IMG/VR virus record: IMGVR_UViG_3300029839_000129
Span: 11,317-43,316 of that record
DNA length: 32,000 nucleotides
Reading direction: 5' to 3' (one strand)
DNA from: a virus
Below the pieces are notes generated by a model. The model saw only the letters and a program-made list of their open reading frames with translations, was not told the DNA's origin and searched no databases. Shown here piece by piece: positions 17,618-32,000 of this stretch. Position numbers and translations under genes: made by a program. Every line of letters begins with the position of its first letter. Position 1 is the stretch's first letter.

Positions 17618-17640
17618 TAAAATAAAGTATATGCTCTCAC

Positions 17641-17663
17641 AAAAGGGCCCGCCGCGCGGGCCC
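17641..17663 (-). terminator. Rho-independent terminator after the 98-aa gene
   Basis: On the minus strand: GGGCCCGC-GCG-GCGGGCCC followed by TTTTG. Confidence 0.7.
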
Positions 17664-17668
17664 TGTGG

Positions 17669-18131: not shown

Positions 18132-18136
18132 AGCAT

Positions 18137-18649
18137 TCACCTTTCATACAATGGATTTAAAGGCCCCGCGCCAGGAGGCCCCTCTGTTCCTGGGTAGCCT
18201 GTAGGGTCAGCATGTACGTTGTCAGGACCGGCCGTCACTACAGCCACATTCAGCCTTGCCTGCCAGATAACGGCGTCTCGCGTCTCCTGTTTGCTATATG
18301 TGATTTGCTCATCTATCGCCCGCATCAGCGACTCTCTAAGCCCCTTTTTGAAATACTCGTCCGGCGCAGACTCTATGAGCAGAGAATCTTCGAGATTTCG
18401 CACATGCGCCCGAGCGACGCAGGGCATGATCACATAACCAGAACGCCGTACAGGCGTCTCCAGGGCTTTGCGATAGTCCTCATACAGATTCTCATAATCC
18501 CGCTTCAGGATGAGCCGCTCGCGCAGCTCATCATTGTAAGCCTCACGAATGGCGTAAAGCTCCGCGCTCGGTACGAAACCCAGCGCCTCAAAACATCTGG
18601 TCCTCCATCGCTCCGCCGTGGTCACGAGCTTGCTCAGGTACTCCCTCAT
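18137..18649 (-). CDS. Hypothetical early protein (170 aa)
   Basis: ATG 18649 follows GGGAGGAAAAGC. Confidence 0.55.
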   Translation of the reverse strand: MREYLSKLVTTAERWRTRCFEALGFVPSAELYAIREAYNDELRERLILKRDYENLYEDYRKALETPVRRSGYVIMPCVARAHVRNLEDSLLIESAPDEYFKKGLRESLMRAIDEQITYSKQETRDAVIWQARLNVAVVTAGPDNVHADPTGYPGTEGPPGAGPLNPLYER

Positions 18650-19109
18650 GCTTTTCCTCCCTTATGTTCTGTGTCTCCATCTGCCCCGGCGCGAACCTAA
18701 ACACTACTATCATTGACGGAAACGGCGCTGCATTTTTGTTTCCGCCGAACTTGAGCCGTCCCTTAATGAAGCGCGTCTCTGCTTTGTTGTATATGTACTC
18801 GTGAAACCATCGCGTATCAGTACGCGCGGGCAACAGCATAACCACAACATTGCCGTCAGCAGCGGCAAGCAAGCCGCGGCGCACCCAGCTTCCGATACTT
18901 TTACCGTACGGAGGGTTACACCAAATAACGCCTTTCCACGGCTGCGAAAGGCCGTCTTGTTCTGATGTGTAATAGTGCTCACACTTTGTATTTTCGGGCG
19001 TTGCGCACACGTCGAGGGTAAAATGGAATTCTTCATTTAGCTTATCAAACAGATCTTGAGGCGTTTCCCACTCGGCACTTTTGCTCGAAAACATGACAGC
19101 GTTATTCAC
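18588..19109 (-). CDS. dam: Phage-type DNA N6-adenine methyltransferase (Dam/N6_N4 family)
   Basis: FSSKSAEWETPQDLF...FTLDVCA...WCNPPYG...LLPARTDTRWFH...GRLKFG...APFPSMIVVF matches the phage Dam pattern, including the NPPY catalytic motif. Confidence 0.85.
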   Translation of the reverse strand: MNNAVMFSSKSAEWETPQDLFDKLNEEFHFTLDVCATPENTKCEHYYTSEQDGLSQPWKGVIWCNPPYGKSIGSWVRRGLLAAADGNVVVMLLPARTDTRWFHEYIYNKAETRFIKGRLKFGGNKNAAPFPSMIVVFRFAPGQMETQNIREEKHEGVPEQARDHGGAMEDQMF

Positions 19110-19125
19110 CCGTTTTCTCCAGTGT

Positions 19126-19392
19126 CTACATGTGCTCTGGCGTCAGCAGCGGCGGCGCGTGCATCATGCTTCGTTTAACTTCATAAAGCAACCCCAAGTT
19201 GCTCAGCCGGCCGTTCTCTGCGCTCTTATCGACGGAATTCTCAAAGCGATACGCCCGCCCCGCGTAGACCATTTGCACCCAGCATCCGCGGCGGCTCCAG
19301 TCGTAGTCGTAGACCTGCACCCCGAGCCTGCCCATGACGCGCCCCAGCTTCTGCTCGTATTCCTCGCGCGACCCTTTGTATTTACGTACCAT
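19126..19392 (-). CDS. Hypothetical early protein (88 aa)
   Basis: ATG 19392 follows AAGGAG. Confidence 0.5.
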   Translation of the reverse strand: MVRKYKGSREEYEQKLGRVMGRLGVQVYDYDWSRRGCWVQMVYAGRAYRFENSVDKSAENGRLSNLGLLYEVKRSMMHAPPLLTPEHM

Positions 19393-19726
19393 CAGCCGCT
19401 CCTTTCTCTATAAACCCCAGTGTCAGCAAAACGTCGTGCGGCACAGGTATCACCTCATACCGGGACCTGCTCTGTCCGGCTCTCCCCTGCTCTGCCCACT
19501 CGTGGCTGAGCAGCACCCGCTCTCCAGCTGTGCCGAGGTGAAGGTAGTGCCTTTCGCCCTCAAGCGAGAACTGAAGCAGGCAGGCCCCGCTCGGGTAGCG
19601 CACAAAGCTCTGCCCGCCGCGCTGGCCGGTCTTAATGCCGTATCGTTTCGCTAAGCGCAGCATTCTCGCCGGCGTGACGTTAAGCACAGGTCCCACCGCC
19701 TTCACGCCCGCCCTCCGTGTCGCCAA
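19382..19726 (-). CDS. Hypothetical early protein; start uncertain (TTG 19726 or ATG 19663)
   Basis: ORF in the operon orientation. Neither candidate start has a clear RBS. Confidence 0.4.
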   Translation of the reverse strand: MATRRAGVKAVGPVLNVTPARMLRLAKRYGIKTGQRGGQSFVRYPSGACLLQFSLEGERHYLHLGTAGERVLLSHEWAEQGRAGQSRSRYEVIPVPHDVLLTLGFIEKGAADGT

Positions 19727-20267
19727 GCCAGTCCCGGCTCTCGATCCACCTCCACACCGCCCCGGGCTCGTCCGCTCGATTCAGTCTCACGGCAAGAACC
19801 GACTCACGGTCCCTGATGATCGCGCAGCCCGTACCGAGGTACGCGGCGTCGTTGCAGTCCCTCAAGCTCCAGCCGGGCCCCAGGCCATACACGCGACGGT
19901 CCAGGGTTTGAACTAGCTGTTGAGTGCCCAGTCGGAGGGGGAGCACCGCGCAGCGCTGAACCGCATAATGATCGCTCACGTAGCTGTTGAACTCCTCGCT
20001 GAAAACGGCGTCCTGTATATACTGTGCAGCCCACCCGCTTTTCCCTTTGCAAACGCTGAGGCAGTCGCCGTTCCCGGGCAGATATCCCAGGACTTCCACA
20101 AGGGCGGCAAGTACGAGCTTTGGCGGCTCCTCCATCACGTCAAATTGCAGGTACGCTGCCCAGTCGGCCCCGATGATCTCCATGCGTCCACCAATTACCC
20201 GGAGCCTAAACCCAATAGCGCCTGAGCTTTTCAGGGCTCGGGCAAGCCGCTTTTCATTAATTATCAT
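19680..20267 (-). CDS. Hypothetical early protein (195 aa)
   Basis: ATG 20267 (MIINEKRLARAL...) follows GAGGAGGAACAAA. The ORF-track start at 20306 is an upstream extension. Confidence 0.55.
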   Translation of the reverse strand: MIINEKRLARALKSSGAIGFRLRVIGGRMEIIGADWAAYLQFDVMEEPPKLVLAALVEVLGYLPGNGDCLSVCKGKSGWAAQYIQDAVFSEEFNSYVSDHYAVQRCAVLPLRLGTQQLVQTLDRRVYGLGPGWSLRDCNDAAYLGTGCAIIRDRESVLAVRLNRADEPGAVWRWIESRDWLGDTEGGREGGGTCA

Positions 20268-20769
20268 TTTGTTCCTCCTCTGGCGGGACATTTGGCGGTA
20301 AATCATGGTCCGAGCGCCATTTAGTTATTGTGCCGGTTGCTACGCCGAGCTGCTTTGCCATCTGCCTGTCAGTAAAGCCCAAGTCATAGAGCACGCGTTT
20401 AGGGCTGCTGGATTCCGCGGCTTTTTTGTTCGGCGGCAGGCCGCGAAGGCGGCGCCAGCGCTTTGCCGTGCTGGTACTCACACCGCAGCGCGCCGCAAGC
20501 TCCGCATCCGTGCAGCCGGCCTTGTAGAGTTTTAGGCGCCGTTCGTTTTGGCTGCACGCGGCGTCAGTTCTTTCAACATGTGCGCGCACGTCCTTTGATA
20601 TTGCTTCCCGCATTTTGTTTGGTTGAAGGCATTCCTCCCGGCATTGGCATCCGTCGCCGGACGGCTGCCGCATCGTGAATGCCCTACTGCGGTGCATGTT
20701 GAGTATGTATACGCAGGCGACGAGGTCCGTGTCCAGGTGACGACATCCGATACAATACTCAGATATCAT
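20257..20769 (-). CDS. DNA-binding protein with an N-terminal Cys cluster and two tandem HTH repeats (170 aa)
   Basis: CIGCRH...C...C.C..EC, followed by TDAELAARCGVSTSTAKRWRRLRGLPPN and TDRQMAKQLGVATGTITKWRSDHDLPPN. Confidence 0.55.
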   Translation of the reverse strand: MISEYCIGCRHLDTDLVACVYILNMHRSRAFTMRQPSGDGCQCREECLQPNKMREAISKDVRAHVERTDAACSQNERRLKLYKAGCTDAELAARCGVSTSTAKRWRRLRGLPPNKKAAESSSPKRVLYDLGFTDRQMAKQLGVATGTITKWRSDHDLPPNVPPEEEQNDN

Positions 20770-21091
20770 TGTGGCCACCCTGCTCCGGCAGCACGATTCG
20801 CTTGCCCGTGTATTGGCAGTAGTCGTAGTCGATTTTCGCACCCGCGGACGTCTCCCAGTCCGGCAGGAATACGACCATGTCCGCGCTGTCGATCATGGCG
20901 AGGCATATGCGCATATAGTCCGCGTTCTTCATACCCTCGGGAAGGTGTGCAGGGTTCAGCACTATGTGTCCCTCGTTCCTCTGCTCCATGTGCGCGGCGA
21001 GAAATTTGCGTTTGTACTCTGGGTCTCCCGTGATTTTTCCCGCTATGTATACCTTCAACGGCGCCACCGCCGCGGTCTGTATCGCAGTCAT
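20759..21091 (-). CDS. DUF4406 / nucleoside 2-deoxyribosyltransferase-like protein (110 aa)
   Basis: KVYIAGKITGDPEYKRKF...GHIVLNPA...DYMRICLAMIDSADMVVFLPDWETSAGAKIDY fits the DUF4406 pattern as I recall it. GAGGTGAGAGC RBS. Confidence 0.6.
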   Translation of the reverse strand: MTAIQTAAVAPLKVYIAGKITGDPEYKRKFLAAHMEQRNEGHIVLNPAHLPEGMKNADYMRICLAMIDSADMVVFLPDWETSAGAKIDYDYCQYTGKRIVLPEQGGHNDI

Positions 21092-21100
21092 GCTCTCACC

Positions 21101-21523
21101 TCAAAACAGTCTTGTCTGGCGTTCTTCCGCCTCGCGCAGCGCCGCCTGCTCGGCGGCCCGCGCCTCTGCTCGTTCCCTCCGTGCCTGAGCCTCAGCCCGC
21201 TCCCGGAGCACCTGTTCATGTATGCGCTGCTCAAGCGGAGTACGTTTCCGTTCTCCCGGCGGCGCCTTACCTCTGCGCCGGCCGGGGCAGCGTCCCCAGT
21301 GCGGGACATATCCGCTCCCCTGCGGCACGGCGGGATGCCCTTCCAGCGTTCCCCGTTCGCATGATCCGTCGCGCTGATAGAACATCAGAGGCCCGGCGTC
21401 GTCCGGCCAGTAGAATACCGGCTCCGCCTCGCAGGGCATGTTTTTCCCTGATTTCGTGCGGATGAATACGAGGGGCTTGCCGCACTCGCGGCATGGTATC
21501 TCAAATCGCTCCTGCCTTGCCAT
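21101..21523 (-). CDS. Hypothetical protein (140 aa) with an N-terminal CxxC and a charged helical C-terminus
   Basis: ATG 21523 follows AGAGGTGGGGG. Contains IPCRECGKPLVF...MPCEA. Confidence 0.5.
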   Translation of the reverse strand: MARQERFEIPCRECGKPLVFIRTKSGKNMPCEAEPVFYWPDDAGPLMFYQRDGSCERGTLEGHPAVPQGSGYVPHWGRCPGRRRGKAPPGERKRTPLEQRIHEQVLRERAEAQARRERAEARAAEQAALREAEERQTRLF

Positions 21524-21701
21524 ATGCCCCCACCTCTTTTACCTGGCCGAGTTTCTTCGTCCTGCACTCCTGCGCAATGGGCAGCCAGCGCACGCCCCAA
21601 ACCTTCGCCGCCGCAATGATGGCGCGCAGCCTGTCCTCCGCTTCGACCTCCACGTCCTCATAGAGCTCGTGCCGCACTTCCCACCTGTCCACGCCGCTCA
21701 C
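21501..21701 (-). CDS. Hypothetical small protein (66 aa)
   Basis: GTG start in a GTGA overlap with the upstream stop (translational coupling). No SD sequence. Confidence 0.4.
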   Translation of the reverse strand: MSGVDRWEVRHELYEDVEVEAEDRLRAIIAAAKVWGVRWLPIAQECRTKKLGQVKEVGAYGKAGAI

Positions 21702-22003
21702 CTGCCAAAGAGCCGCGAGAAAAGCGAGGCGTGCGGTTTGTTGGTTTCCGTTTCATCGATGACTGCGTTTTTGGCCGCCTCAGCAGCCTGGTCAACAAGT
21801 CCTGGGAACTCTGTTTCCAGCGTTTTGAGCCCCATCAGGGCACTGGCATATGTGCTTATCAGCGTTTGCCGTTTGCCCTGTATGCCGGTCAAGCAGTGCG
21901 CTTCTCCGCCACTTCCAAACGCCCCGATCACGCATTCGCACTCCCGCTCAAGCAGCGGCTTGCCCTTGCCCTTTTCTCTGATAGTAACGATGTACATGTT
22001 CAT
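21698..22003 (-). CDS. Hypothetical early protein (101 aa)
   Basis: ATG 22003 (MNMYIVTIREKG...) follows GGAGGA. The ORF-track extension to 22183 is Cys/Arg-rich and overlaps the upstream gene. Confidence 0.5.
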   Translation of the reverse strand: MNMYIVTIREKGKGKPLLERECECVIGAFGSGGEAHCLTGIQGKRQTLISTYASALMGLKTLETEFPGLVDQAAEAAKNAVIDETETNKPHASLFSRLFGR

Positions 22004-22064
22004 TCCTCCGTTGTCATATTTGCAAGCGGCCCAGCCGCTCACCACACTATGTGTGGGGTGCTGG

Positions 22065-22700
22065 TCATGCCGTCCACACATATCCATAGCAGAACACATG
22101 CGCCCCGATCTGCCCCCACACCCGGTCATTCTCAGCGCCGCGGGAGAAGTACAGCACCTCATACGGCACGATCTCAGTCTCAAACGCCGCGTCTACGGCC
22201 TCATAGTTGGTCTCATTCGGCACCACGCTCCCAAGGATAGAGGCCGTTGAGAATTGCCGCTCCTGGTATATGACCTCGCTCACCGTGTCCGGGAAGCTCT
22301 CGGAGCGCACGCGGTTGAGCACCACCTGGGCCACCGCTATCTGCCCCTCAAGCGTCTCCGTGTTCGCCTCGGCATACACCACGCGGGCGAGCAGCTCCCG
22401 CTCCTCCGCTGTGATTTCCTCATACCGCGGCTCCGGTTTAGGCTCCGCGGGAGGCTCAGGCGTCTGAGGTTCATGTGCTGCCACGTCCGGCGCTACCGCC
22501 AGTTGCGCCGCCAGCGCGGCGGAGCTGTAAACAGGCGCGGGCAGCTCACTTGCCGCCCGCGCCTCCTGCGCACTCAGGCGCAGCGATATGATGGCGGCGA
22601 GGATGATGAGCAGCACGCACAGTGCTATGTACCCGGCCAATACGGCCTTCCCCCTCCAATTTCTCATCTTTCCCCGCCGCCTTTCTTTTGTGTTCTTCAT
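22065..22700 (-). CDS. Membrane-anchored SleB-family cell-wall hydrolase (Hydrolase_2-like)
   Basis: Basic N-terminus plus a TM helix (AVLAGYIALCVLLIILAAIISL), a Pro/Glu linker, then LLARVVYAEANTETLEGQIAVAQVVLNRVRSESFPDTVSEVIYQERQF. Confidence 0.75.
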   Translation of the reverse strand: MKNTKERRRGKMRNWRGKAVLAGYIALCVLLIILAAIISLRLSAQEARAASELPAPVYSSAALAAQLAVAPDVAAHEPQTPEPPAEPKPEPRYEEITAEERELLARVVYAEANTETLEGQIAVAQVVLNRVRSESFPDTVSEVIYQERQFSTASILGSVVPNETNYEAVDAAFETEIVPYEVLYFSRGAENDRVWGQIGAHVFCYGYVWTA

Positions 22701-22709
22701 GTAAGGGTG

Positions 22710-23093
22710 TCAGTGAATGTCCACTATCATCACCTTGCCGCCGCTCAGTGTCGCCGCAAGCTGCAGCTGCTCCAGGCATTCAAGGCTCTCACACCGCTCC
22801 AGCATAGCCGCCAGTTCCATGAGCAGCAGCGCCGCCCCTCCGCGGTCCCTGTCCGCCCGCCCCGGCGCTTCCGGCGCCAGTGCGTTGACCTCCCGCGCGG
22901 CTTCCGGCTCTGTTGCCGCCTTCTGCTTGGGCTTTGGCCCCGGCTTCACATATCCGCTCTCCGGATTGCGCAGGAGGATATCCTTTATCCAGTCCGCCTT
23001 TACCGCATTCAGCTCCGCCAGCACCTCGATTTGCTTGGGCTTGTTCTTCGCCGTCCGGTACTCCCGGACGATTTCGCTTTCGGACATAACCAT
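22710..23093 (-). CDS. Hypothetical early protein (127 aa)
   Basis: ATG 23093 follows GAGAGGG. N-terminus SEIVREYRTAKNKPKQIEVLAELNAV. Confidence 0.5.
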   Translation of the reverse strand: MVMSESEIVREYRTAKNKPKQIEVLAELNAVKADWIKDILLRNPESGYVKPGPKPKQKAATEPEAAREVNALAPEAPGRADRDRGGAALLLMELAAMLERCESLECLEQLQLAATLSGGKVMIVDIH

Positions 23094-23106
23094 GTTTGTG
23101 ACCCTC

Positions 23107-23304
23107 TCAGTCCGCCAGCACGTAGCCGTACTGGCGTATTATCCTGTTGATGCCGCTGCGCATGCGCGAGCGTTCCTCCTCCGTCGTCGGCCGCCGGTGT
23201 ACGATACAGGTCGTGACACCCTGCTTTGGGCCATAGTCGTACCGCAATATGTACCCGTCCTCGGTGTCCTCTTTCGTGATTATCGGATAAACAGGCTCCG
23301 CCAC
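23107..23304 (-). CDS. Hypothetical small protein (~65 aa)
   Basis: GTG 23304 follows GGAGGTGAGGGCT, the same RBS-to-GTG arrangement as at 25269 and 26137. The ORF-track TTG 23325 has no SD. Confidence 0.45.
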   Translation of the reverse strand: MAEPVYPIITKEDTEDGYILRYDYGPKQGVTTCIVHRRPTTEEERSRMRSGINRIIRQYGYVLAD

Positions 23305-23362
23305 AGCCCTCACCTCCACCTTCAAGCCTATGTGTGCCCGCAGTTGCCCTATGCCTTGCCGT

Positions 23363-23887
23363 TCAGGCGCTCCCGTTCATAGCCTCGAACAGGTCGCAGC
23401 TGTCCTTCCAATTTGGGTGCTTGAATCCTCTGCCTCTTGGGCAGCAATGTCCGCGACTAATGGGGCTGAACGAGCCTGAAGCCGTAATAACGTAGTGTTG
23501 GTGGAAATTACGACAGTTTGCGCACACTTTATCGTTGTTGGAAATTTTGAAGCATTCTCGGGCCTCTTTCAGGGCCTTTTCTGCCGTTCCGAGAACAATG
23601 AACCGCGCTATTCCTACCAGTGCTCTTACGTTTGGTGAATAAGTATCGCCCGTTCTCTTTGTCTCCTCTTTTTCAGTCTCCTCGTCCCAGCCCATCAGAT
23701 GAGCCGCGTTTGTTTCCAAGGCGTGTGCAATCGGTTCCAGATACTTGGAAGGGATTTTCTCAATGTCGCCGTTTTCATATCGGTACACAGTTGCGCGCGA
23801 CACTCCTAGCACCTTGGCAACCTCATCGACGGATATCTTTAAGCTTTTGCGCCGCTCCTTCATTCGTTCTCCAAATGTCTTTGGCAT
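23363..23887 (-). CDS. XRE-family HTH regulator with a Cys-rich C-terminal domain (174 aa)
   Basis: ERMKERRKSLKISVDEVAKVLGVSRATVYRYENG. C-terminal CANC...HCCPRG...C. ATG 23887 follows GAGGAGG. Confidence 0.75.
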   Translation of the reverse strand: MPKTFGERMKERRKSLKISVDEVAKVLGVSRATVYRYENGDIEKIPSKYLEPIAHALETNAAHLMGWDEETEKEETKRTGDTYSPNVRALVGIARFIVLGTAEKALKEARECFKISNNDKVCANCRNFHQHYVITASGSFSPISRGHCCPRGRGFKHPNWKDSCDLFEAMNGSA

Positions 23888-23969
23888 GGGCTTGTGAACC
23901 TCCTCTTGCTCTCTCGCCTCTTTTACTGCGCTAAGCTTTTACAGCGCGGAGAACCGCATATTAAAACAT

Positions 23970-23998
23970 TTGCCAACTTGTCCCATGAAAGGTATTAT
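23970..23998 (+). promoter_or_regulatory. Sigma-A-type promoter candidate facing right
   Basis: TTGCCA (23970-23975), 17-nt spacer, TATTAT (23993-23998). Confidence 0.5.
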
Positions 23999-24380
23999 TA
24001 TTTGTTGATAAAAGCACCCAGGCAACGCCGAGCCAAGCCCCGCAAAAAAAGGGGAAGGTGTAACGACTGGACACGGGGCATCCCACGTGGATGAAGGCAC
24101 AGTCTGAACTCACGGGCGACCGTGAGAGGCAGGCAGAAATGACTTGCCCGCGCCGTCAGGCGAAGTAACAATATGGATGTCTAGCGTAAGTATGAACGAT
24201 GACATTGGTTACATTTCCGGCATGCTTTCTGGTATTAGCACTGTCAACACACTTACAGCCAGCATTATCAACCCCATAGATATTACTGGTGTAACATTAG
24301 CGAGCGAGGTGGTCACATCGCCCTGCCGCCCGGCGACGGGCGGTATGCACTCCGTAAATTCGGCGAAAATCTGGGTGCTC

Positions 24381-24467
24381 TTATCGACAAACTGGGCAAG
24401 CCTTGCTTAAATTTGTTCCATCCCGCCCGCGCTCATCCAGCGCGGGCTTTTTATTACCGCCGCTCAC
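24381..24467 (-). pseudogene. 28-codon ORF sharing its first 15 codons and RBS with the 63-aa gene at 25269; likely a truncated relic
   Basis: GTG 24467 follows AGGAGGTGAGGAC. Product MSGGNKKPALDERGRDGTNLSKACPVCR. The first 45 nt lie inside repeat A. Confidence 0.35.
24425..24452 (+). terminator. Rho-independent terminator, copy 1 (inside repeat A)
   Basis: GCCCGCGCT-CATCC-AGCGCGGGC followed by TTTTT. Confidence 0.7.
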
Positions 24468-24481
24468 GTCCTCACCTCCTC

Positions 24482-24510
24482 TTGTCCGCCTCCGCGCCCG
24501 GTGGTAAAAT
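24482..24510 (+). promoter_or_regulatory. Extended -10 promoter, copy 1 (inside repeat B)
   Basis: TTGTCC, 17-nt spacer ending in TGg, TAAAAT. GGAGGTGA RBS at 24521-24528 and ATG at 24533. Confidence 0.55.
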
Positions 24511-24532
24511 CATCCGGAAGGGAGGTGACGAT

Positions 24533-24748
24533 ATGGCATCTATTCGCCAGTACGATAAACCTTGGACTTGCGCCAAATCCGGACATGAAGAAAAGTTCGC
24601 CGTATACCTGTTGGCAGCGGATGACGGCACAATTCTTGATGTCAAAGAGAATGGCTGCGAGAACATGGACGGAAGTGACAAATGCAACTCATGTCGCGCT
24701 CATGTTCTCCAGCAGCTCTATGAGCTCCACCTCGGTCATCGGCTCTGA
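24533..24748 (+). CDS. Small 4-Cys protein (71 aa) on the opposite strand to the early operon
   Basis: ATG 24533 lies 4 nt after GGGAGGTGA. Product MASIRQYDKPWTCAKSGHEEKF...GCENMDGSDKCNSCRAH. The ORF-track start at 24413 would read through the terminator and promoter. Confidence 0.55.
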   Translation: MASIRQYDKPWTCAKSGHEEKFAVYLLAADDGTILDVKENGCENMDGSDKCNSCRAHVLQQLYELHLGHRL

Positions 24749-24967
24749 TAAGCGGATCGTGTGCGCCCGGTCATATGCCGCTGGCAAAAGTCCGCGGCGC
24801 ACAAGTATTTCCGACAGGCAGACAATGGCGCCGTAAGCTTCTTCCGCGTGCGGCGTGTCCCTTGTGAACGCCTCCAGTGCGAACAGATACGCCTCTATGT
24901 ATCTCCTGTCCCGTGTTTCGGAGTTCGGATACTCCCTGTCAAAGCCGACAAGTTCAAGTGCGCTCAC
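24689..24967 (-). CDS. Hypothetical small protein (92 aa)
   Basis: GTG 24967 follows AGGAGGTGAGTGG. Its 3' end overlaps the convergent gene 24533..24748 by 60 nt. Confidence 0.5.
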   Translation of the reverse strand: MSALELVGFDREYPNSETRDRRYIEAYLFALEAFTRDTPHAEEAYGAIVCLSEILVRRGLLPAAYDRAHTIRLSEPMTEVELIELLENMSAT

Positions 24968-25077
24968 CCACTCACCTCCTTACAACCTTCAGCGAATTTT
25001 GTAAACTGAACGCTCGCGGCCAAGGCGAACGAGCTATTATGCGTGAGTTTATAGAGCACGTCGCTCAGCACGACGAT

Positions 25078-25269
25078 TCAGTCAACTCTACTGTCAGATT
25101 CCTCGTTCTCGATAAGTAAGTGCTCTGGCACTATTCCGGAATATATACCGGTACTACCCTCTTCTTGCTTCGCAGTCATGCTATTTGTTGACCAGATGAC
25201 TTCTCCCGTTATGCTCACGTTCTCCCGCCCGCGCTCATCCAGCGCGGGCTTTTTATTACCGCCGCTCAC
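25078..25269 (-). CDS. Hypothetical small acidic protein (63 aa)
   Basis: GTG 25269 follows AGGAGGTGAGGGC. The first 15 codons lie inside repeat A. Confidence 0.45.
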   Translation of the reverse strand: MSGGNKKPALDERGRENVSITGEVIWSTNSMTAKQEEGSTGIYSGIVPEHLLIENEESDSRVD

Positions 25270-25296
25270 GCCCTCACCTCCTTACTGCGCCGTCTG
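25223..25296. repeat. Repeat A copy 2 (25223-25282), overlapping repeat C copy 1 (25264-25296)
   Basis: Repeat C (gctcacgccctcacctccttactgcgccgtctg) is 33/33 identical to 26132-26164. Confidence 0.9.
25227..25254 (+). terminator. Rho-independent terminator, copy 2 (inside repeat A)
   Basis: The same hairpin and T5 tract as at 24425-24452. Confidence 0.65.
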
Positions 25297-25494
25297 AAAC
25301 GCATCAACCACCATTGCCACGCTGGTGCCTAAAACTTCTGCCCACCAATTCAGCTCGGATATTTTAGGAGAGCGTCCTTTTCTTGTCATCTTGCTAATGG
25401 ATTGTCTGCTTCTACCCACTTGACGCGCCATCTCTGACTCACTGCCGAAGCGCGCTTTTATTAAACTTTTGAGCGCTCTATTATACTCGGCCAT
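25282..25494 (-). CDS. Small HTH protein (70 aa)
   Basis: ATG 25494 follows GGGGAGGCGAGGG. Contains SESEMARQVGRSRQSISKMTRKG and ends ...QTAQ, like the HTH protein at 26150. Confidence 0.6.
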   Translation of the reverse strand: MAEYNRALKSLIKARFGSESEMARQVGRSRQSISKMTRKGRSPKISELNWWAEVLGTSVAMVVDAFQTAQ

Positions 25495-25509
25495 GCCCTC
25501 GCCTCCCCT

Positions 25510-25557
25510 CTTGTCCGCCTCCGCGCCCGGTGGTAAAATCATCCGGAAGGGAGGTGA
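25510..25557 (+). promoter_or_regulatory. Repeat B copy 2: extended -10 promoter plus RBS
   Basis: Identical 48 nt. -35 at 25511-25516, -10 at 25534-25539, GGAGGTGA at 25550-25557. Confidence 0.55.
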
Positions 25558-25564
25558 ATTTGAT

Positions 25565-25996
25565 ATGTCCGATGGTACTATTGCCCTGGTCTCCACACTT
25601 ATTGGCACTGCGGTCACCGGACTGTTTGCTTTTTTCAACGCACTCTTTACCGGCATCTCAAACCGAAAAATAAAACTCGTAGAGCTAAGCTACCGCGATG
25701 CTGCCGCAGCCTTCAGCGAATACCTGACCGCCAGTAGCGTAGTTCCCAACCCTATAAGTGAGGAGTACCTGGCTGAATTCAGCGGCAGTTATGCACGAGC
25801 AAGTTTGTATGTCTCGGAGCAGACGCGACCTGTTCTCGAGAAGCACTTTCTTGCAACAATACGCTCGCCGGAATCTTTGGAGCCGGATGAAGCCGCCCAT
25901 GCGCTGAAGCTCAGCCGTCTGAGAAACGAGTTGCTGAAAGCCATGCAGAATGATTTATCAGGCAAAAGTAAACGCAAGAACAAGAGTGACAAGTAG
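25565..25996 (+). CDS. Membrane-anchored protein (143 aa) with a Lys-rich C-terminal tail
   Basis: ATG 25565 lies 7 nt after GGAGGTGA. N-terminal TM helix IALVSTLIGTAVTGLFAFFNALF. C-terminus GKSKRKNKSDK. Confidence 0.6.
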   Translation: MSDGTIALVSTLIGTAVTGLFAFFNALFTGISNRKIKLVELSYRDAAAAFSEYLTASSVVPNPISEEYLAEFSGSYARASLYVSEQTRPVLEKHFLATIRSPESLEPDEAAHALKLSRLRNELLKAMQNDLSGKSKRKNKSDK

Positions 25997-26137
25997 CCCC
26001 AGAAGAACGATGGCAGGCAGGGCAATGACTACCGCCTGCCATCCATCGTATTCGAGCCAGGCTATCGCCGCTATCATCATCGCCATGAGCATTAGCATAC
26101 CTACTAGAAAGAGAGTGAAATACTGTGTGTTGCTCAC
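25958..26137 (-). CDS. Small membrane protein (59 aa) with two TM helices; below the ORF-track size cut-off
   Basis: Hand-translated: GTG 26137 follows AGGAGGTGAGGGC. Product MSNTQYFTLFLVGMLMLMAMMIAAIAWLEYDGWQAVVIALPAIVLLGLLVTLVLAFTFA, TGA at 25958. Confidence 0.55.
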   Translation of the reverse strand: MSNTQYFTLFLVGMLMLMAMMIAAIAWLEYDGWQAVVIALPAIVLLGLLVTLVLAFTFA

Positions 26138-26164
26138 GCCCTCACCTCCTTACTGCGCCGTCTG
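26132..26164. repeat. Repeat C copy 2
   Basis: Identical to 25264-25296. It spans the last codons (QTAQ plus stop) of an HTH gene, and the RBS and GTG-AGC start of the next gene. Confidence 0.9.
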
Positions 26165-26353
26165 TTCCACAGGCAGTTCGAATAGCTTCTCGATGTTACA
26201 CTCCAGCGCATCGGCAAGCCTCGGCAGTACCACGCTCTTAGGAGCACTTAAGCCGCTCTCCCATTTGGCAATGGTCGAGCGATCTACCCCCATTGCTCGT
26301 GCTAAGTCAACTTGCCTTAACCCCGCCTCTTGTCTGAGCCGTGCTATATTCAT
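26150..26353 (-). CDS. XRE-family HTH protein (67 aa)
   Basis: ATG 26353 follows AAGGAGG. Contains MNIARLRQEAGLRQVDLARAMGVDRSTIAKWESG. Confidence 0.7.
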   Translation of the reverse strand: MNIARLRQEAGLRQVDLARAMGVDRSTIAKWESGLSAPKSVVLPRLADALECNIEKLFELPVEQTAQ

Positions 26354-26366
26354 TGCAATTGCCTCC

Positions 26367-26585
26367 TTACTGTGCCGGAATTGGTGTGAACAGTTCATCT
26401 ATGCTGACATTCAGCGCCCATGCGAGCGCCGGTATCTCGTCACCATATACCGGGCGCTTGCAGTTCAGTATTCTCGAGAGGGTGTCCTTGCGTATACCTG
26501 TTTTCTCAGCTACGACCTTCTGCACCCTGCCTTCTTCCTCAATGATCCGCTTGAGATTTCTATTGACAATATAGCTTTTTTCCAT
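26367..26585 (-). CDS. Cro-like XRE-family HTH protein (72 aa); first gene of the leftward early operon
   Basis: ATG 26585 follows AGGAGGTGAGC. Contains LKRIIEEEGRVQKVVAEKTGIRKDTLSRILN. Divergent from the CI-like gene. Confidence 0.75.
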   Translation of the reverse strand: MEKSYIVNRNLKRIIEEEGRVQKVVAEKTGIRKDTLSRILNCKRPVYGDEIPALAWALNVSIDELFTPIPAQ

Positions 26586-26626
26586 AAGCTCACCTCCTGA
26601 TTCTATGTAACGTTGAGTTCGTTATC

Positions 26627-26655
26627 AATATACTCTATTCTGCGTTGAGTGTCAA
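26627..26655 (-). promoter_or_regulatory. Leftward early (lytic) promoter candidate
   Basis: On the minus strand: TTGACA (26655-26650), 17-nt spacer, TATATT (26632-26627). Confidence 0.6.
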
Positions 26656-26686
26656 GCTATATTTATTGCCGTTGCTCAATTATCCG

Positions 26687-26714
26687 TTGACATTCATTAA
26701 ATTCTAGGTATAAT
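26687..26714 (+). promoter_or_regulatory. Rightward repressor promoter candidate
   Basis: TTGACA (26687-26692), 16-nt spacer, TATAAT (26709-26714). GAGGAG RBS at 26721-26726 and ATG at 26735. Confidence 0.65.
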
Positions 26715-26734
26715 CAATTTGAGGAGTTGATTGC

Positions 26735-27097
26735 ATGAGCGTAACTGAAATAGGCAAACGATTAAAGCTGGCTCGTCAGCAGGCTCATATCACGCAGGCC
26801 GAAGTTGCGAAACGTTTGGGAGTTTCTTTTCAGACGATAAGCAGCTACGAGCGAGGTATTAACAGGGTGGATAGCGATACGCTCATGCGGCTGTGCGAAA
26901 TATATAATGTTCCCATAGGCGAGTTGATGGCTGACGCGCGTCCATCTGCCAGTATTGAAGGTGAAAAGTATTCTGATGATGAGAGGGAGCTTATCGAGCT
27001 ATATCGCCGCGCAGACGAAGCTGATCGGCTAGCCGTAAACCTGATATTGCAAAAATACGCGGACCCCGAGGTAACTATCCCGGCCAGCGCCGGATAA
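26735..27097 (+). CDS. CI-like XRE-family repressor (120 aa)
   Basis: IGKRLKLARQQAHITQAEVAKRLGVSFQTISSYERG plus a C-terminal extension. Divergently arranged with the Cro-like gene. Confidence 0.8.
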   Translation: MSVTEIGKRLKLARQQAHITQAEVAKRLGVSFQTISSYERGINRVDSDTLMRLCEIYNVPIGELMADARPSASIEGEKYSDDERELIELYRRADEADRLAVNLILQKYADPEVTIPASAG

Positions 27098-27121
27098 TCT
27101 ACATCTCAGATTACATGAAAT

Positions 27122-27148
27122 AAAAAAAGCCGCCCCTCCCGAGGCGGC
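27122..27148. terminator. Hairpin after the repressor gene; a possible terminator
   Basis: A7 tract, then GCCGCC - 8-nt loop - GGCGGC. The U-tract is strong only on the minus-strand reading and weak on the + strand. Confidence 0.4.
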
Positions 27149-27232
27149 GCTTCATAACTGTTAAGTAATACTTGTCGTTTTGCTATTGATTTTATAACTC
27201 ATGTGTAATATGATACGTGCAAGGGGAATACT

Positions 27233-27631
27233 ATGAACTTAGATGAGATAACCCGTCTGCTCCGGGAACTGCTTCTCGGCTTTAACGTTCACGAAAGGTT
27301 TATTGACGAGCTTGCCGATATTCTCCGCAGTTCCGGCATAGAAAGGTCTTTTTTCAGTAAGCTGGCGTTTTGCCTCAGGTTTCTGTCCCTCTATGGTGCT
27401 CAGGCAGTGCGGCATGAGGAGTTTGAATCCCTTGGCGGTGGCCTGTTCAGTATGCATGTTGACGGCAAGGGCTACAATGTGCGTATCCTCTACGGCTTTT
27501 TGCGCGACCAGTCTCCTGCGCTGCTGTTGGCGTTCTTTAAACGCTCAGGAAAAGGTAAGACGGACTATCAGTCCCATATAGGCCCCGCTGCCTCCAGGCT
27601 TGAAAGGATGAATAATTGTTATGTCGGCTGA
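27233..27631 (+). CDS. Gp49-like (RelE/HigB-superfamily) toxin candidate (132 aa)
   Basis: FESLGGGLFSMHVDGKGYNVRILYGF...ALLLAFFKRSGKGKTDY fits the Gp49/DUF891 addiction-module pattern. It overlaps the following HTH gene by 11 nt, with the toxin first. Confidence 0.55.
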   Translation: MNLDEITRLLRELLLGFNVHERFIDELADILRSSGIERSFFSKLAFCLRFLSLYGAQAVRHEEFESLGGGLFSMHVDGKGYNVRILYGFLRDQSPALLLAFFKRSGKGKTDYQSHIGPAASRLERMNNCYVG

Positions 27632-28022
27632 TACTAAAATTGATGCTCTTATCAATGTGCTCACCGAAGGAATGACTGAGGAGGACGCTGCTCTTGCGCT
27701 CATGTCAGTGGATGTTTCTGTGGCCATCGCCAGCAAACGTATAGACATGGGCCTGACTCAGAAAGAATTCAGCGAATACATGGGCGTCTCTCAGGCCATG
27801 GTTTCCAAATGGGAGGGCGGAGAGGCAAATTTTACGCTCAAAACTCTTGCGCAGATAGCGGCAAAACTGGGTATTAAGGTGCGCAGCCCATTCGTTGTGG
27901 ATAAGGTGCCGGCACATATTAGCCGCTTCTCTAATGTCGTCCAATTACCGAACGCCGAAAGTTGGGAATTTTCTTCCTCCGGCTCAACATTTACCGACGT
28001 CGGCGAACTAAAGGAGATGTGA
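27621..28022 (+). CDS. XRE-family HTH antitoxin candidate (HigA-like, 133 aa)
   Basis: RIDMGLTQKEFSEYMGVSQAMVSKWEGGEANFTLKTLAQIAAKLG. Confidence 0.6.
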   Translation: MSADTKIDALINVLTEGMTEEDAALALMSVDVSVAIASKRIDMGLTQKEFSEYMGVSQAMVSKWEGGEANFTLKTLAQIAAKLGIKVRSPFVVDKVPAHISRFSNVVQLPNAESWEFSSSGSTFTDVGELKEM

Positions 28023-28028
28023 GTTAAA

Positions 28029-28247
28029 ATGTTCAACTACTCAAATGCGTTTCATATTGCCATGCAGAAAGAGAGCAGGAATATCATGATAGACTTCATT
28101 CAGGAAGCACCAACTTTTGGCGACGACAAGAGGATCAATGGTCTCAAGTCGGACGCCGTTGCTTCCGTAGTATTGCCTGTGGACGTTGCTTTGGACCTTG
28201 CTGAACACATCCAATCATATTTCGCAGAAGAGCCTTCCAATACCTGA
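28029..28247 (+). CDS. Hypothetical acidic protein (72 aa)
   Basis: ATG 28029 lies 6 nt after the antitoxin stop, in the same operon orientation. Confidence 0.45.
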   Translation: MFNYSNAFHIAMQKESRNIMIDFIQEAPTFGDDKRINGLKSDAVASVVLPVDVALDLAEHIQSYFAEEPSNT

Positions 28248-28316
28248 TATCGCTTAACAGCCCCCTTGCGGTAGGCTTCCCACGCATACGTGGTAAGCTG
28301 AGTCCTGGGGGCCCAC

Positions 28317-29831
28317 TTGTATATCCACTCAAGGGAGGTGATTCCTACGAATTTCATGTATCTCCGCAAGAGCCGCGCGGAGGAGGGGCAGAGCACGGAG
28401 GAGGTGCTGGCGAAGCACCGGGCCGCGCTGGAGGAGCTGGCCGACCGGCTCGGGCTGCCCGTGGACGGGGTGTATGAGGAAGTGGCGTCCGGTGAAAAGC
28501 TCTATGCGCGCCCGGAAATGCTCAAGCTGCTCGAGCGCATCCGCGCCGGCGAAGTTGAGGCCGTGCTGTGCATGGATATCGACCGCCTCGGGCGCGGCGG
28601 CATGGCTGACCAGGGCACCATCCTGGACGCCTTCCGCGAGTCCGGCACGCTGATAATCACGCCGGAGAAAACCTATGACCTCACGAATGACGTCGATATC
28701 GAGATGACGGAGTTTAAGGCGTTCTTCGCCCGGGCCGAGTGGCGTGCCATCCGCAAGCGCATGCGCCGAGGCCTGATGCAGACCATAGAGGCCGGTGGCT
28801 ACACGGCCAACGCGCCCTACGGCTACCGCCGCTGCCGCATCGGCAAGCTGCCTTCGCTGGAGGTCATCCCCGAGGAAGCGCGTTTCGTGCGCTATATCTA
28901 TGAGCGTTACCTCGCCGGCATCGGCGCGCAGACCATAGCGCAGGAGCTCAACGCCATGGGGAGCACGCCGCGGCGCGGGGCCGAGTGGAACCGAAATACG
29001 GTGCGGCACGTACTGCGCAATCCCACCTTCGCCGGTAAGGTCGCCTGGAACCGCGTGAAGCACTATCGCCCCGGAACTCATGGCAAAGACAAGCATCACG
29101 TCGTTTATACCCCGGAGGGCGAGTGGCTGATGGTGGACGGCGTGCACGAAGCGATCATCCCATGGGACACCTGGCTGGAAGCTCAGGAGCGCAGGAAGCA
29201 GCGATACATACCGCCCAGCAACACCGGCCAGCGCGCAAACCCCTTTGCAGGCATCATCCGCTGCTCGAAGTGCGGGAACAATATGCAGCGCATGGGGACT
29301 AACAAAGGCGAGCCGTATCTGCTGTGTACCACAAAGGGCTGTACCGCCGGTGCGAAGTTCGAGTATGTAGAGGAGCGCATGGTCGAGCTGCTGTATGACG
29401 AGCTTGCCCGGCTCCGACTTCTCATAGACTCGGGAGCAGCTCCGAACGTTGACGCGCTGGAAGCCGCCCTGGCCGCCGCGCAGCGCGAGCAGGAGCGCGT
29501 ACAGGCCCGCATCCCGCGTCTGTATGAATTCCTCGAGGACGGCACCTATGACCGCTCTACGTTCCGCTCAAGGCTCGACGCCGCAGAAAAAGAGCTTGCC
29601 GAGCTTGCAAGCAAACGGGCAGACCTCGAACGCCAGATAGATGAGCGCCGCCGCAGCGACCCGCGCAAAGCCGCCGCCGCATTGGAGAATCTGGTCCAGC
29701 TCTACCCCACCATGTCTCCCGCCGACAAGAACAGTGCCCTAAAAGCACTCGGCGTGGAAGTAACCTACACCAAAGAGAAGAAAACCAAACCCCGCGACTT
29801 CACCCTGGAGCTCCAGCTCCGCGATTTTTAA
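28317..29831 (+). CDS. int: Large serine recombinase (integrase), SprA/YokA-like
   Basis: Catalytic region FMYLRKSRAEE, DRLGRG, IITPEKTYDL. Recombinase domain YGYRR. Zinc ribbon CSKCGNNM...LLCTTKGC. C-terminal coiled coil. The start is uncertain: TTG 28317, GTG 28337 or ATG 28356. Confidence 0.9.
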   Translation: MYIHSREVIPTNFMYLRKSRAEEGQSTEEVLAKHRAALEELADRLGLPVDGVYEEVASGEKLYARPEMLKLLERIRAGEVEAVLCMDIDRLGRGGMADQGTILDAFRESGTLIITPEKTYDLTNDVDIEMTEFKAFFARAEWRAIRKRMRRGLMQTIEAGGYTANAPYGYRRCRIGKLPSLEVIPEEARFVRYIYERYLAGIGAQTIAQELNAMGSTPRRGAEWNRNTVRHVLRNPTFAGKVAWNRVKHYRPGTHGKDKHHVVYTPEGEWLMVDGVHEAIIPWDTWLEAQERRKQRYIPPSNTGQRANPFAGIIRCSKCGNNMQRMGTNKGEPYLLCTTKGCTAGAKFEYVEERMVELLYDELARLRLLIDSGAAPNVDALEAALAAAQREQERVQARIPRLYEFLEDGTYDRSTFRSRLDAAEKELAELASKRADLERQIDERRRSDPRKAAAALENLVQLYPTMSPADKNSALKALGVEVTYTKEKKTKPRDFTLELQLRDF

Positions 29832-29846
29832 CTGCTGTATTTATAA

Positions 29847-30545
29847 AACGGTCAGTCTTATGACAAAGACTGCATAGAAGACCTCCGGGTTTACCCCACC
29901 GTCGGGTCCCAGACCTACATAGACAACGCCTTCAGCGTCCGGCCCAAGAGCGCGGAGCTGCTGTATGCCGAGGTGAACGTCGAGGCCATCACCTTCAACA
30001 AGGGCTATTACACCGTAGACGTCACATATTTCTACAAGATAACGGGCGAGACCTTCCCCGGCGGGAACACCGTCACGGGACTCGCCATCTTCGACAAGCG
30101 CGTCATGCTCTGCGGCGGCGAGGGCACGGTAAAGACGTTCTCGTCCGACCTGTGCGACTGCAGCTGCGTGGACGACGGCATGCCCACCGCCTACGTCGAG
30201 GCCGTCGACCCCATAGCGCTGCACCTCAAGCTCGTAGACGCCAACTGCAACGTCTGCTGCGACAACGACAGACACGACATCCCGGCCTGCATCCTCGCCC
30301 GCTTCGGCGAGGCGCTGGTCACCACCGACACCGGCCGCAGGCTGTACGTCACCCTCGGCCAGTTCTCCATCATCCGCCTTGAGCGCGACACCCAGATGCT
30401 CATCCCGGCCTACGATTACTGCGTGCCCGAGAAGGAATGCGCCGGCGGCCGCTGCAACGACGACCCCTGCGAGATCTTCTCCCAGATCCGCTTCCCCGTC
30501 GAGGAGTTCTTCCCCTCCGGCGACTGCACCACGACCACCAGCTGA
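29847..30545 (+). pseudogene. Cys-rich host ORF, apparently 5'-truncated by prophage insertion. The alternative is an intact 190-aa gene starting at GTG 29973.
   Basis: The frame is open from 29847 with no ATG/GTG/TTG before 29973 and no well-spaced SD. The upstream in-frame translation looks like protein and is GC3-rich from ~29873. There are 13 Cys in the last 190 aa (CDCSC, CNVCC, CAGGRCNDDPC). Confidence 0.5.
29853..29872. other. 7-bp inverted repeat just past the integrase stop; candidate att-junction region
   Basis: CAGTCTT (29853-29859), 6 nt, AAGACTG (29866-29872), within the AT-rich stretch 29832-29872. Confidence 0.35.
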
Positions 30546-30605: not shown

Positions 30606-32000
30606 TTACGCGAGCTCGCGTCCCATGAGGACGCCCATGGCGGAGGCCATCATGAGGCCGCGGGTCCAGCCGGAGGAGTCGCCCAGGGCATGGAGGCCGG
30701 GGACATTGGTGTTGAAGCTGGTGTCCATCTTGACCTTGTTGGAGTAGAACTTCAGCTCCGGGGAATACAGCAGCGTCTCGTAGGATGCGAAGCCGGGGAC
30801 GACTTCGTCCATGGACTTGATGAAGTTGATGATGTTTATCATCGCGCGGTAAGGCATGGCGGCGGTGATGTCGCCCGCGACGGCGTCCACCAGGGTGGGA
30901 CGGACGTTGGAGTAGGCCAGCTCCTTCTCCCAGGTGCGCTTGCCGTCAAGTATGTCGCCGAAGCGCTGGACAAGGATGTGGCCGTTGGCCAGCATGTTGG
31001 TCAGCTCGCCGACCTTCTGCGCGTAGGCGATGGGCTGGTTGAAGGGCACGGAGAAGTTGTGTGAGCAGAGGATGGCGACGTTGGTGTTCGGGCTCTTGAG
31101 GTCGGCGCCCTTGAAGGCGTGGCCGTTGACGACGGCGAGGTCGTTGTCGTAGTTCTCCTGGCTCACGACGCCGCCGGGATTCTGGCAGAAGGTGCGGACC
31201 TTGTTCTTGAAGGGCTTCGGATAGCCGATGAGCTTGGACTCATAGAGGACGTCGTTTATCTCCTCCATGATCTCGTTCCTGACCTCGACGCGGACGCCGA
31301 TATCGACGGTGCTGGGCTGGTGCTCCACGCCGTGCTCGGAGCAAATCTTCTCCAGCCAGTCCGCGCCGCGGCGGCCGGTGGCGACGACGGTGTGCTCCGC
31401 GCGGATCTCAAAGTCCTTCTTGCCGTCCGTGAGGTACACGCCGCGGCAGACGTCGCCCTCCATGATGAGGTCGCGGCACTCGGTGTCGAAGTACATCTCG
31501 ACGCCGTGGTCCATGAGGTAGTGCTCTATGCCGAGGTAGACGTCGTGCGCCTTCTCGGTGCCCATGTGGCGGATGGGGCAGTCCACGAGCTTGAGTCCGG
31601 CCTTGATGGCGCGGGCGCGGATGCGGCGGACCTTCTCCTCGTTGCCGATGCCCTCGATGTGCTCGTCGGCGCCGAACTCGAGGTAGATCTTGTCGGCGTA
31701 GTCGATGGTCTCCTGGGCCAGGCGCTCGCCAATGAGCGTGGGCAGGTCGCCGCCGACCTCACAGGCCAGGGAGAGCTTGCCGTCCGAGAACGCGCCCGCG
31801 CCGGAAAAGCCCGTGGTGATATGGCAGACGGGCTTGCAGTTCATGCAGACGCCGGTCTTGGCCTTGGGGCAGCTGCGCTTTTCAAGGGCGCGGCCTTTCT
31901 CGACCATCACTATCTTCTTCTTGCTGCCCCGGCGCAGCATCTCGAGCGCCGTGAATATACCGGCAGGTCCCGCGCCGACGATGACGACATCTGCATTCAT
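30606..32000 (-). CDS. FAD/NAD(P)-binding oxidoreductase (COG2509-like), complete at 464 aa
   Basis: N-terminal dinucleotide-binding motif VVIVGAGPAGIFTA. ATG falls exactly at 32000 and the stop at 30606. Host-type housekeeping gene. Confidence 0.8.
   Translation of the reverse strand: MNADVVIVGAGPAGIFTALEMLRRGSKKKIVMVEKGRALEKRSCPKAKTGVCMNCKPVCHITTGFSGAGAFSDGKLSLACEVGGDLPTLIGERLAQETIDYADKIYLEFGADEHIEGIGNEEKVRRIRARAIKAGLKLVDCPIRHMGTEKAHDVYLGIEHYLMDHGVEMYFDTECRDLIMEGDVCRGVYLTDGKKDFEIRAEHTVVATGRRGADWLEKICSEHGVEHQPSTVDIGVRVEVRNEIMEEINDVLYESKLIGYPKPFKNKVRTFCQNPGGVVSQENYDNDLAVVNGHAFKGADLKSPNTNVAILCSHNFSVPFNQPIAYAQKVGELTNMLANGHILVQRFGDILDGKRTWEKELAYSNVRPTLVDAVAGDITAAMPYRAMINIINFIKSMDEVVPGFASYETLLYSPELKFYSNKVKMDTSFNTNVPGLHALGDSSGWTRGLMMASAMGVLMGRELA

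Follow-up and report, generated by a model that had tools for sequence, protein, structure and literature searches.

A temperate prophage splits a Cys-rich gene of gut Oscillospiraceae at a conserved GA dinucleotide and may be excised during sporulation

The DNA analyzed here, called the window, is a 32,000-nucleotide (nt) stretch of one strand that is 100% identical to the ENA human-gut contig k127_67730 from ERR912123. It contains the right part of a temperate prophage that ends in a SprA-type large serine integrase, followed by the 3' part of a Cys-rich gene of the host, an uncultured human-gut Oscillospiraceae bacterium. An earlier note on this DNA had proposed that the prophage interrupts a spore-surface gene and acts as a developmentally excised element. 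In this study, the window was compared with other assemblies, whose loci carry L numbers. The junction has the following features.

28356..29831, plus strand: SprA-type large serine integrase of 491 amino acids (aa); ATG 28356 is the likely start, and the catalytic Ser lies in MYLRKSR
29838..29888, plus strand: right attachment site attR (P arm, GA, B' arm), from comparison of the window with attB (L004), attL (L012, L013) and attP (L098, L101, L103)
29845-29861: phage P arm of attR, AAAACGGTCAGTCTTAT; the host B' arm starts at 29864
29862..29863, plus strand: crossover dinucleotide GA, the first two bases of codon 33 (GAC)
29862..29872, plus strand: 11-base-pair (bp) core GACAAAGACTG, common to attB, attP, attL and attR of the present phage-host pair
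29862..30545, plus strand: 3' part of the split Cys-rich host gene, codons 33-259 and stop, without promoter, ribosome-binding site (RBS) or start codon
30550..30591, plus strand: terminator hairpin with a 19-bp stem, 3' of the host gene
30606..32000, minus strand: host FAD-dependent oxidoreductase in the right host flank (Pfam FAD_binding_2, DAO, FAD-depend_C)

The reading frame of the Cys-rich gene is open from 29847, directly after a TAA at 29844-29846. The 42 codons before GTG 29973 contain no ATG, GTG or TTG, and the nearest GGAG (29954-29957) lies 15 nt before this GTG; on all these points the sequence agrees with the earlier note, as it does on the end of the integrase at 29831. With the 223-aa open frame as the query, 4220 homologues were found, typically of 257-266 aa, with 96-100% query cover and about 36 more residues at the N-terminus. 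Full-length relatives read MADRVLPGPVD..ACIREAVCVHTKKI[FY]DSCR/DKDCIEDLRVYP, whereas the window reads stop-NGQSY/DKDCIEDLRVYP. In L004, a prophage-free and near-identical strain, the intact Cys-rich gene lies between a DUF4364 gene and the same FAD oxidoreductase as at 30606-32000. The window and L004 are 100% identical from 29862 on and unrelated before. Because the window matches the intact L004 gene only from 29862, codons 1-32, the RBS and the promoter are missing from it. These comparisons show that the prophage interrupts a Cys-rich host gene of 259 aa at codon 33, cutting off codons 1-32, the RBS and the promoter. Prophage-free orthologues begin 68 codons upstream of GTG 29973; a start at this GTG with a promoter of its own, which the earlier note had named as evidence against its proposal, was thus not seen in them. 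The "start" called at this GTG (gene call P0105) is read as an artefact of the truncation. A consensus scan of 29700-30700 found no sigma70-like promoter. The peptide upstream of the GTG had been suspected to be coding from about 29873; it is coding, matching orthologue residues 33 onward, but the homology starts already at 29862.

A tblastn search for the 5' fragment inside the window found none, and the left junction therefore lies outside it. It was read from the IMG/VR contigs L012 and L013, which are near-identical to the contig of the window; on its phage side, L012 shares 99.6% identity with L006, a piece of the contig that contains the window, where the two overlap. The four attachment sites are given below.

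attB, L004: gattcttgcagg-GACAAAGACTG-catagaagac, i.e. gattcttgcagg-GA-caaagactgcatag
attR, window: aaaacggtcagtcttat-GACAAAGACTG-catagaagac
attL, IMG/VR L012: gattcttgcagg-GACAAAGACTG-accgttttaaaaaac
attP, L098: T-AAAACGGTCAGTCTT-AT-GA-CA-AAGACTGACCGTTTT-A

At attL the 5' stub has 35 codons and ends, before its stop, in MADRV...DSCRDKD. Both halves of the gene, the attL stub and the 3' part at attR, are identical to the intact L004 allele and collinear with it. The earlier note had named a matching 5' fragment at the left junction as the check on its proposal, and such a fragment is present in L012 and L013, joining in frame at 29862. By this alignment, the promoter and codons 1-32 are located about 41 kilobases (kb) leftward, at attL. 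The split of a 5'-truncated host gene by a prophage is thus supported by the orthologues, by L004 and by the attL stub. When the lysogen's attL was also sought via its DUF4364 neighbor, just empty sites or a contig ending inside the stub were obtained.

The attP site was read directly where the integrase gene abuts the opposite phage end, and it is a perfect 15-bp inverted repeat with a central GA. Variants of attP and attL read GAaagag (L101, L013) or GAaaaag (L103), compared with GAcaaag in attB and attR. Since these variants diverge immediately 3' of the GA, the obligatory identity is the GA at 29862-29863. A GA-dinucleotide core is the expectation for a large serine integrase. The GA is kept in 75 of 77 orthologues, and the adjacent bases coding for DKDC are among the most conserved of the gene. 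The 7-bp inverted repeat described earlier at 29853-29872 was read as CAGTCTT (29853-29859) and AAGACTG (29866-29872). It is no chance feature but the inner part of attR, in which the inner phage P arm is paired with a fortuitously similar host B' arm.

In silico, recombination of attL with attR would restore the exact sequence of the gene and free the phage as a circle. Both predicted excision products, attB and attP, exist with exact sequences in other samples, and L098, a 40,252-bp scaffold in the attP configuration, represents the free or circular form. The attP-form contigs indicate that the phage also exists free or excised.

The integrase matched the Pfam families Resolvase (PF00239, 8e-21, residues 2-148), Recombinase (PF07508, 3e-26) and Zn_ribbon_recom (PF13408, 3e-7). 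Against all PDB sequences, SPbeta YokA/SprA gave the sole matches at E<=1e-3 (E=3.5e-36, residues 2-475 vs 18-516). The alignment passes the Cys cluster and the coiled-coil region up to residue 475, and the Ser in YLRKSR is aligned with the Ser in YLRRSR of SprA. Blocks of SprA that the earlier note had listed as YLRxSR, IITPxKxYD and F.AREE do have counterparts here: YLRKSR/YLRRSR, LIITPEKTYD/LIIITPYKVYD and FFARAEW/FMAREEF line up. In NCBIfam, CcrB and XisF were the only matches, and these were sub-threshold. With the catalytic domain, the Recombinase and zinc-ribbon domains, the coiled-coil region, and an attP and a different attB that share a non-palindromic central dinucleotide all found, the protein is assigned to the large serine recombinases of the phage-integrase type. 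Among the PDB sequences compared, its similarity places it closer to SprA than to other characterized serine integrases. Different gene callers chose alternative starts, GTG 28338 and TTG 28317. A search by motif for a sigmaK or sigmaE promoter before the integrase found none.

The same site is used by other integrases. This GA is the target of five integrase lineages with 51-99% identity, and integrases of 51-63% identity were found at the same GA of orthologous genes in L035/L104, L084, L107 and L109. In L084, the 5' fragment is inverted and lies 5.4 kb upstream of the 3' fragment, with the host DUF4364 and asnA genes between them. The opposite orientation had been predicted from L084, and exactly this arrangement was found in L114 and L115, independent assemblies from the species of L084: integrase, small gene, tRNAs, asnA, DUF4364 and intact gene, with attP adjoining the integrase. 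L084 corresponds to L115 with 4790-10097 inverted (99.8-99.97% identity; L084 1-6100 compared with L114/L115 4280-10100), and the breakpoints overlap by the 2-bp GA. The integrase of this invertible case is chromosomal and phage-free and has a 63-aa partner, and its attP is inverted and lies 5.3 kb from attB. L084 is the flipped form with a split gene and attL/attR (OFF), and L114 and L115 are the unflipped form with an intact gene and attP/attB (ON). Misassembly of L084, a metagenome-assembled genome (MAG), at a tRNA repeat was considered and rejected, as the predicted ON arrangement with an exact attP occurs in two independent assemblies. These results indicate that in this species the integrase clade inverts a piece of the chromosome and in this way splits the gene or joins it again. 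The phage-free retention of the integrase and small-protein pair as an inversion module argues that reversible control of the gene, and not lysogeny, is selected.

Such an arrangement raises the question of a heritable on/off switch resembling phase variation, in which the gene would be toggled in the germline and subpopulations would differ in their spore or cell surfaces, e.g. for evasion of phages or immunity. Within one species, the consensus of the assembly has the 5.3-kb segment ON in some samples (L114, L115) and OFF in another (L084), and lysogen and empty-site alleles are both common. However, large serine integrases are strongly directional. Without a directionality factor only the change from ON to OFF would be expected and not free toggling, and the promoter type described below points to sporulation-specific use. 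We consider a switch of this kind improbable.

Two further species show other arrangements at the same GA. In L112 (the species of L104 and L035), the 3' fragment is adjoined by the integrase and a 63-aa gene (8398-12201), host metabolic genes lie directly upstream, and no 5' fragment or DUF4364 gene was found within 10 kb on either side. This could reflect a translocation, an inversion of very large size or a gene that is no longer functional. In L109 (6001-7642), a 51%-identical integrase adjoins the 5' fragment in convergent orientation. As this is the attL side, the phage there enters the same GA the other way round. The host neighbor in L109 is a gene for a SleB-type cortex hydrolase (Cu_amine_oxidN1 and Hydrolase_2), which we counted toward a sporulation link.

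The L112 species, with no 5' fragment within 10 kb of its integrase-linked 3' fragment, is the case that would fit a dead end, i.e. a defective prophage in a decaying pseudogene with no further recombination. For the element in the window this is very improbable. Its 3' fragment matches the intact allele with 100% identity and carries no frameshift, the integrase is intact and belongs to a 90% cluster of 1468 members, and attP-form genomes exist.

The Cys-rich protein belongs to a large family, with 1240 clusters at 50% identity and members in at least 585 species-level genomes. The best 80 genomes with the gene are all MAGs of uncultured Oscillospiraceae/Clostridiales. The family has no Pfam, NCBIfam or PDB sequence match, and the source names of its members are all "hypothetical protein". 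Its predicted structure, made from a 90-sequence alignment, is beta-rich (predicted local distance difference test score 85.5), and residues 21-45 form one long core strand across the split site. A Foldseek search with this model against PDB and BFVD gave no match at E<=1e-3 and no TM-score >0.25. Residues 18-45 are near-invariant. Conservation and the modeled strand spanning the split together indicate that the N-terminus matters to the protein. C31, C36 and C235 are at least 90% conserved in the alignment; the closer orthologues all keep C219 and C225 and nearly all keep C21, and there are variable Cys patches too.

Upstream of the intact gene, cACa-N15-GCATA[G/C]ACTGTAnTGAAg is present in 75 of 77 species, within otherwise unalignable DNA. 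For most species, the distance from this AC-N16-CATA motif to the ATG is 36-52 nt. In C. difficile, the sigmaK signature is AC at -35 and CATA at -10, and sigmaE has the same -10 with ATA at -35 (PMC3789822). We infer that the conserved motif is a sigmaK-type promoter, which would make the gene a late mother-cell gene; this is the main in silico argument for a role in sporulation. The earlier note's claim of a split gene stands, and its claim of a spore-surface function is plausible only, from the promoter in 75 of 77 species and the richness in Cys. A near-invariant stretch, ACTGTAnTGAAG, was also found well past the -10 box in 75 species (e.g. L004 1895-1925), and this conservation suggests an extra regulator site or a conserved 5' leader. 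AGACTG of the promoter region recurs in the attB core, probably by coincidence. DUF4364, a predicted regulator (e.g. L004 1270-1803), neighbors the Cys-rich gene in divergent orientation in the species that were examined, and in L114 it lies inside the invertible segment. A literature search on DUF4364 found no papers.

If the prophage is excised in a controlled way, a recombination directionality factor (RDF) would be needed beside the integrase, and the candidates in the window are as follows.

23107..23304, minus strand: p65, 65 aa, candidate RDF from homologues near the integrase in other elements
23325..23352, minus strand: putative sigmaE-type promoter-like motif ATA-N17-CATAGGCT, 20 nt before the p65 start codon
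28029..28247, plus strand: 72-aa open reading frame (ORF) directly upstream of the integrase, a weaker alternative RDF candidate

Homologues of p65 lie beside the integrase and divergent from it in the phage-free reduced elements L084/L114 (43% identity, E 2e-18) and L104/L035 (29% identity, E 2e-7), and 1 kb from the integrase in the distant prophage L107. ATA-N16/17-CATAnnnT has a single match in the window, both strands counted, which is the one before p65, where 0.5 is expected, and in four of four p65 lineages a CATAnnnT precedes the start codon by 16-20 nt. For p65, neither a Pfam family nor any sequence similarity to SprB was found. The SprB protein of SPbeta has 58 aa; its gene lies within an early operon but also has a mother-cell promoter of its own, in which the -10 is perfect and the -35 imperfect (PMC4191935). 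The 72-aa ORF is missing from the reduced elements and was for this reason placed after p65; it occurs in 171 collection blocks, with the integrase next in every one, and has no Pfam match.

These observations led us to propose that the Cys-rich gene is a late mother-cell, sigmaK-dependent coat or exosporium gene from which the prophage is excised as in SPbeta, under a sigmaE-controlled RDF. This developmental reading, built from sequence and from analogy, falls just short of an even chance in our judgment. The integrase would be made constitutively, as with SPbeta/spsM, and during sporulation the mother cell would turn on p65, the best RDF candidate, by way of the sigmaE-type promoter of p65 itself. 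Excision of the prophage in the mother cell would follow, the gene would be rebuilt in time for sigmaK expression, and the spore would retain the prophage. Read from the early lytic operon, p65 would also serve excision on induction. Of the developmentally excised element that the earlier note had proposed, the insertion in the coding sequence and the exact restoration in silico stood; timed excision is plausible only, on account of p65 and its sigmaE-type motif. With the demonstrated split of the gene and the proposed developmental excision taken together, we hold this to be the best overall explanation, with slightly more confidence than doubt.

Several points weigh against developmental excision. 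The Cys-rich family has no tie to spores through Pfam, PDB, fold or literature, no sporulation genes were found on the approximately 60 kb of host flank read, and promoter positions 8-9 are TG where the consensus has TA. The p65 motif implies a very short leader with the Shine-Dalgarno sequence almost at +1, and a second phage variant has a different -35. A SprB homologue was sought among 17 small prophage proteins against the SprA-SprB fusion chain 9dxd, which gave linker artefacts only; since RDFs lack conservation of both sequence and fold (PMC12286644), this null is weakly informative. The attL for the window's own contig is taken from near-identical IMG/VR contigs, and the attP contigs could be explained by plain lytic induction. 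The intact (ON) allele is the population consensus in many assemblies, so the gene is not obligatorily split. For the developmental part, the hosts are MAGs throughout and uncultured.

A rival reading is plain lysogeny with insertional inactivation. Here, the phage would use the site only because the sequence coding for DKDC is conserved and vegetative cells can do without the gene, excision would occur only on lytic induction, and lysogens would make spores (or cells) without the Cys-rich protein. In favor of this, the phage is complete and its attP form is observed, strains with the lysogen allele occur alongside strains without it, no sporulation promoter lies near the integrase, and the sigmaK-type matches within the window are within chance. 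On the other hand, the characterized serine-integrase elements inside mother-cell genes are all excised in sporulation (PMC4191935, PMC5595907, PMC5025042), the integrase and small-protein pair is kept phage-free as an inversion module on the same gene, and a sigmaE-type motif lies upstream of p65. We regard plain lysogeny as a serious but doubtful alternative.

Returning to developmental excision, the closest known system is SPbeta in spsM, which is likewise an active temperate phage in a spore-surface gene of the mother-cell type (putative here) with its integrase adjoining the att site. SprA of SPbeta is the only PDB sequence relative of the integrase, yet it is distant, as shown by the weak full-length alignment, and no sequence homologue of SprB was found here. 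The sprB gene codes for a factor of about 60 aa in an early operon after a sigmaE/K-type -10 (PMC4191935), and the candidate p65 is similar. The target spsM encodes a sugar epimerase, whereas the gene split here encodes a different, uncharacterized Cys-rich and beta-rich protein. SPbeta has a Bacillus host and 134 kb; the present phage has an Oscillospiraceae (Clostridia) host, about 41 kb and a P22-type portal, and its excision in sporulation is proposed from the sequence.

The skin element in sigK (SpoIVCA in B. subtilis; CD1231 with the RDF CD1234 in C. difficile) is likewise a serine-recombinase element that splits a mother-cell gene. In C. difficile skin, the RDF is the cell-type-specific trigger (PMC5025042). 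However, skin is a defective remnant in a regulator, a sigma factor, whereas the present element is a complete phage whose attP form is seen and whose target looks structural. Minimal or prophage-like serine-recombinase elements in sporulation genes include gin in gerE (B. cereus ATCC10987) and yin in yabG (C. botulinum) (PMC5595907, PMC10747680). The gene content of gin is resembled by the reduced integrase and small-gene cassettes of L084/L114 and L104. While gin and yin are excised, the att sites of the L084/L114 cassette are inverted, and it flips a 5.3-kb host segment instead.

This inverted arrangement has an engineered counterpart. In "rewritable" switches made from the Bxb1 integrase and its RDF, inverted attP/attB sites are flipped to attL/attR and presumably back by integrase with RDF. 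Unlike this engineered memory, the L084/L114 system is natural and chromosomal and controls the integrity of an ORF. The kind of element is thus already known (SPbeta/spsM, skin/sigK, vfbin, vrin, gin, yin), and what is new is the gene family, the host clade, the phage, the att sites and the inversion variant. We tentatively suggest that the integrase and its partner of about 63 aa may form a portable module for reversible control of one sigmaK-type gene of gut Oscillospiraceae, used as an excised 41-kb phage or as a domesticated cassette that inverts a host segment with DUF4364, asnA, tRNAs and the integrase, although our doubt slightly exceeds our confidence in it.

Prophage-mediated gene reconstitution, known from Bacillus and a few clostridia, would by these findings extend to abundant, mostly uncultured gut Oscillospiraceae. 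The split gene flags a large unannotated family, likely of a late-sporulation surface protein with no known fold. The full set of attP, attB, attL and attR with a mapped GA crossover and a candidate RDF offers potential parts for genome engineering. If the proposal is true, the inversion would be the first natural large-serine-integrase inversion switch on a developmental gene, and the Cys-rich protein would join the spore-surface components as a new one that is switchable by design.

The remainder of the window is occupied by the prophage, whose features were assigned by Pfam on the called genes of the same contig.

1..29861, genes mostly on the minus strand: right part, about 30 kb, of the temperate prophage of about 41 kb
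2860-3117: holin (Phage_holin_1)
3147-4604: GH25 endolysin (Glyco_hydro_25)
9719-10726: capsid (Phage_capsid_4)
12342-14471: portal (P22_portal)
26150-28022: lysogeny module with helix-turn-helix (HTH) genes (HTH_3)

This part of the prophage also encodes Dam, several HTH regulators and a HigB/HigA-like pair. The rest, about 10.7 kb left of the window, is seen in L006, L012 and L013, giving the total of about 41 kb. Next to attL, the phage ends with a gene for an LPD23 "polyvalent" protein of 3126 aa (L006 14466 onward; L012 840 onward). A megablast search of INPHARED phages with the integrase region gave no match. From the 1468-member integrase cluster and the 171 blocks with the 72-aa protein, the phage is judged to be common.

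Some smaller observations concern the phage and its host flank. The LPD23 gene takes up nearly one quarter of the phage genome, and its product has 1489, 2254, 3126 or 3146 aa in different phage variants. Just upstream of the integrase, at 27233-28022, a Gp49/HigB-like 132-aa ORF overlaps a 133-aa HTH ORF, and by sequence these two likely form a prophage-borne toxin-antitoxin pair. A perfect sigmaK-type match, AC-N17-CATAGAGTA, lies at 6427-6454 on the minus strand, 157 nt upstream of the phage gene 5188-6270; this match (6454-6427) is the single one to the sigmaK regular expression in the window, where 3.7 are expected by chance. The product of gene 5188-6270 has faint TPR matches only, and the gene could be a sporulation-expressed moron. 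In the host flank, some strains have an additional 66-aa HTH gene after the Cys-rich gene and before the FAD oxidoreductase gene (L001 10685-10885, L100 12640-12840), which the window lacks.

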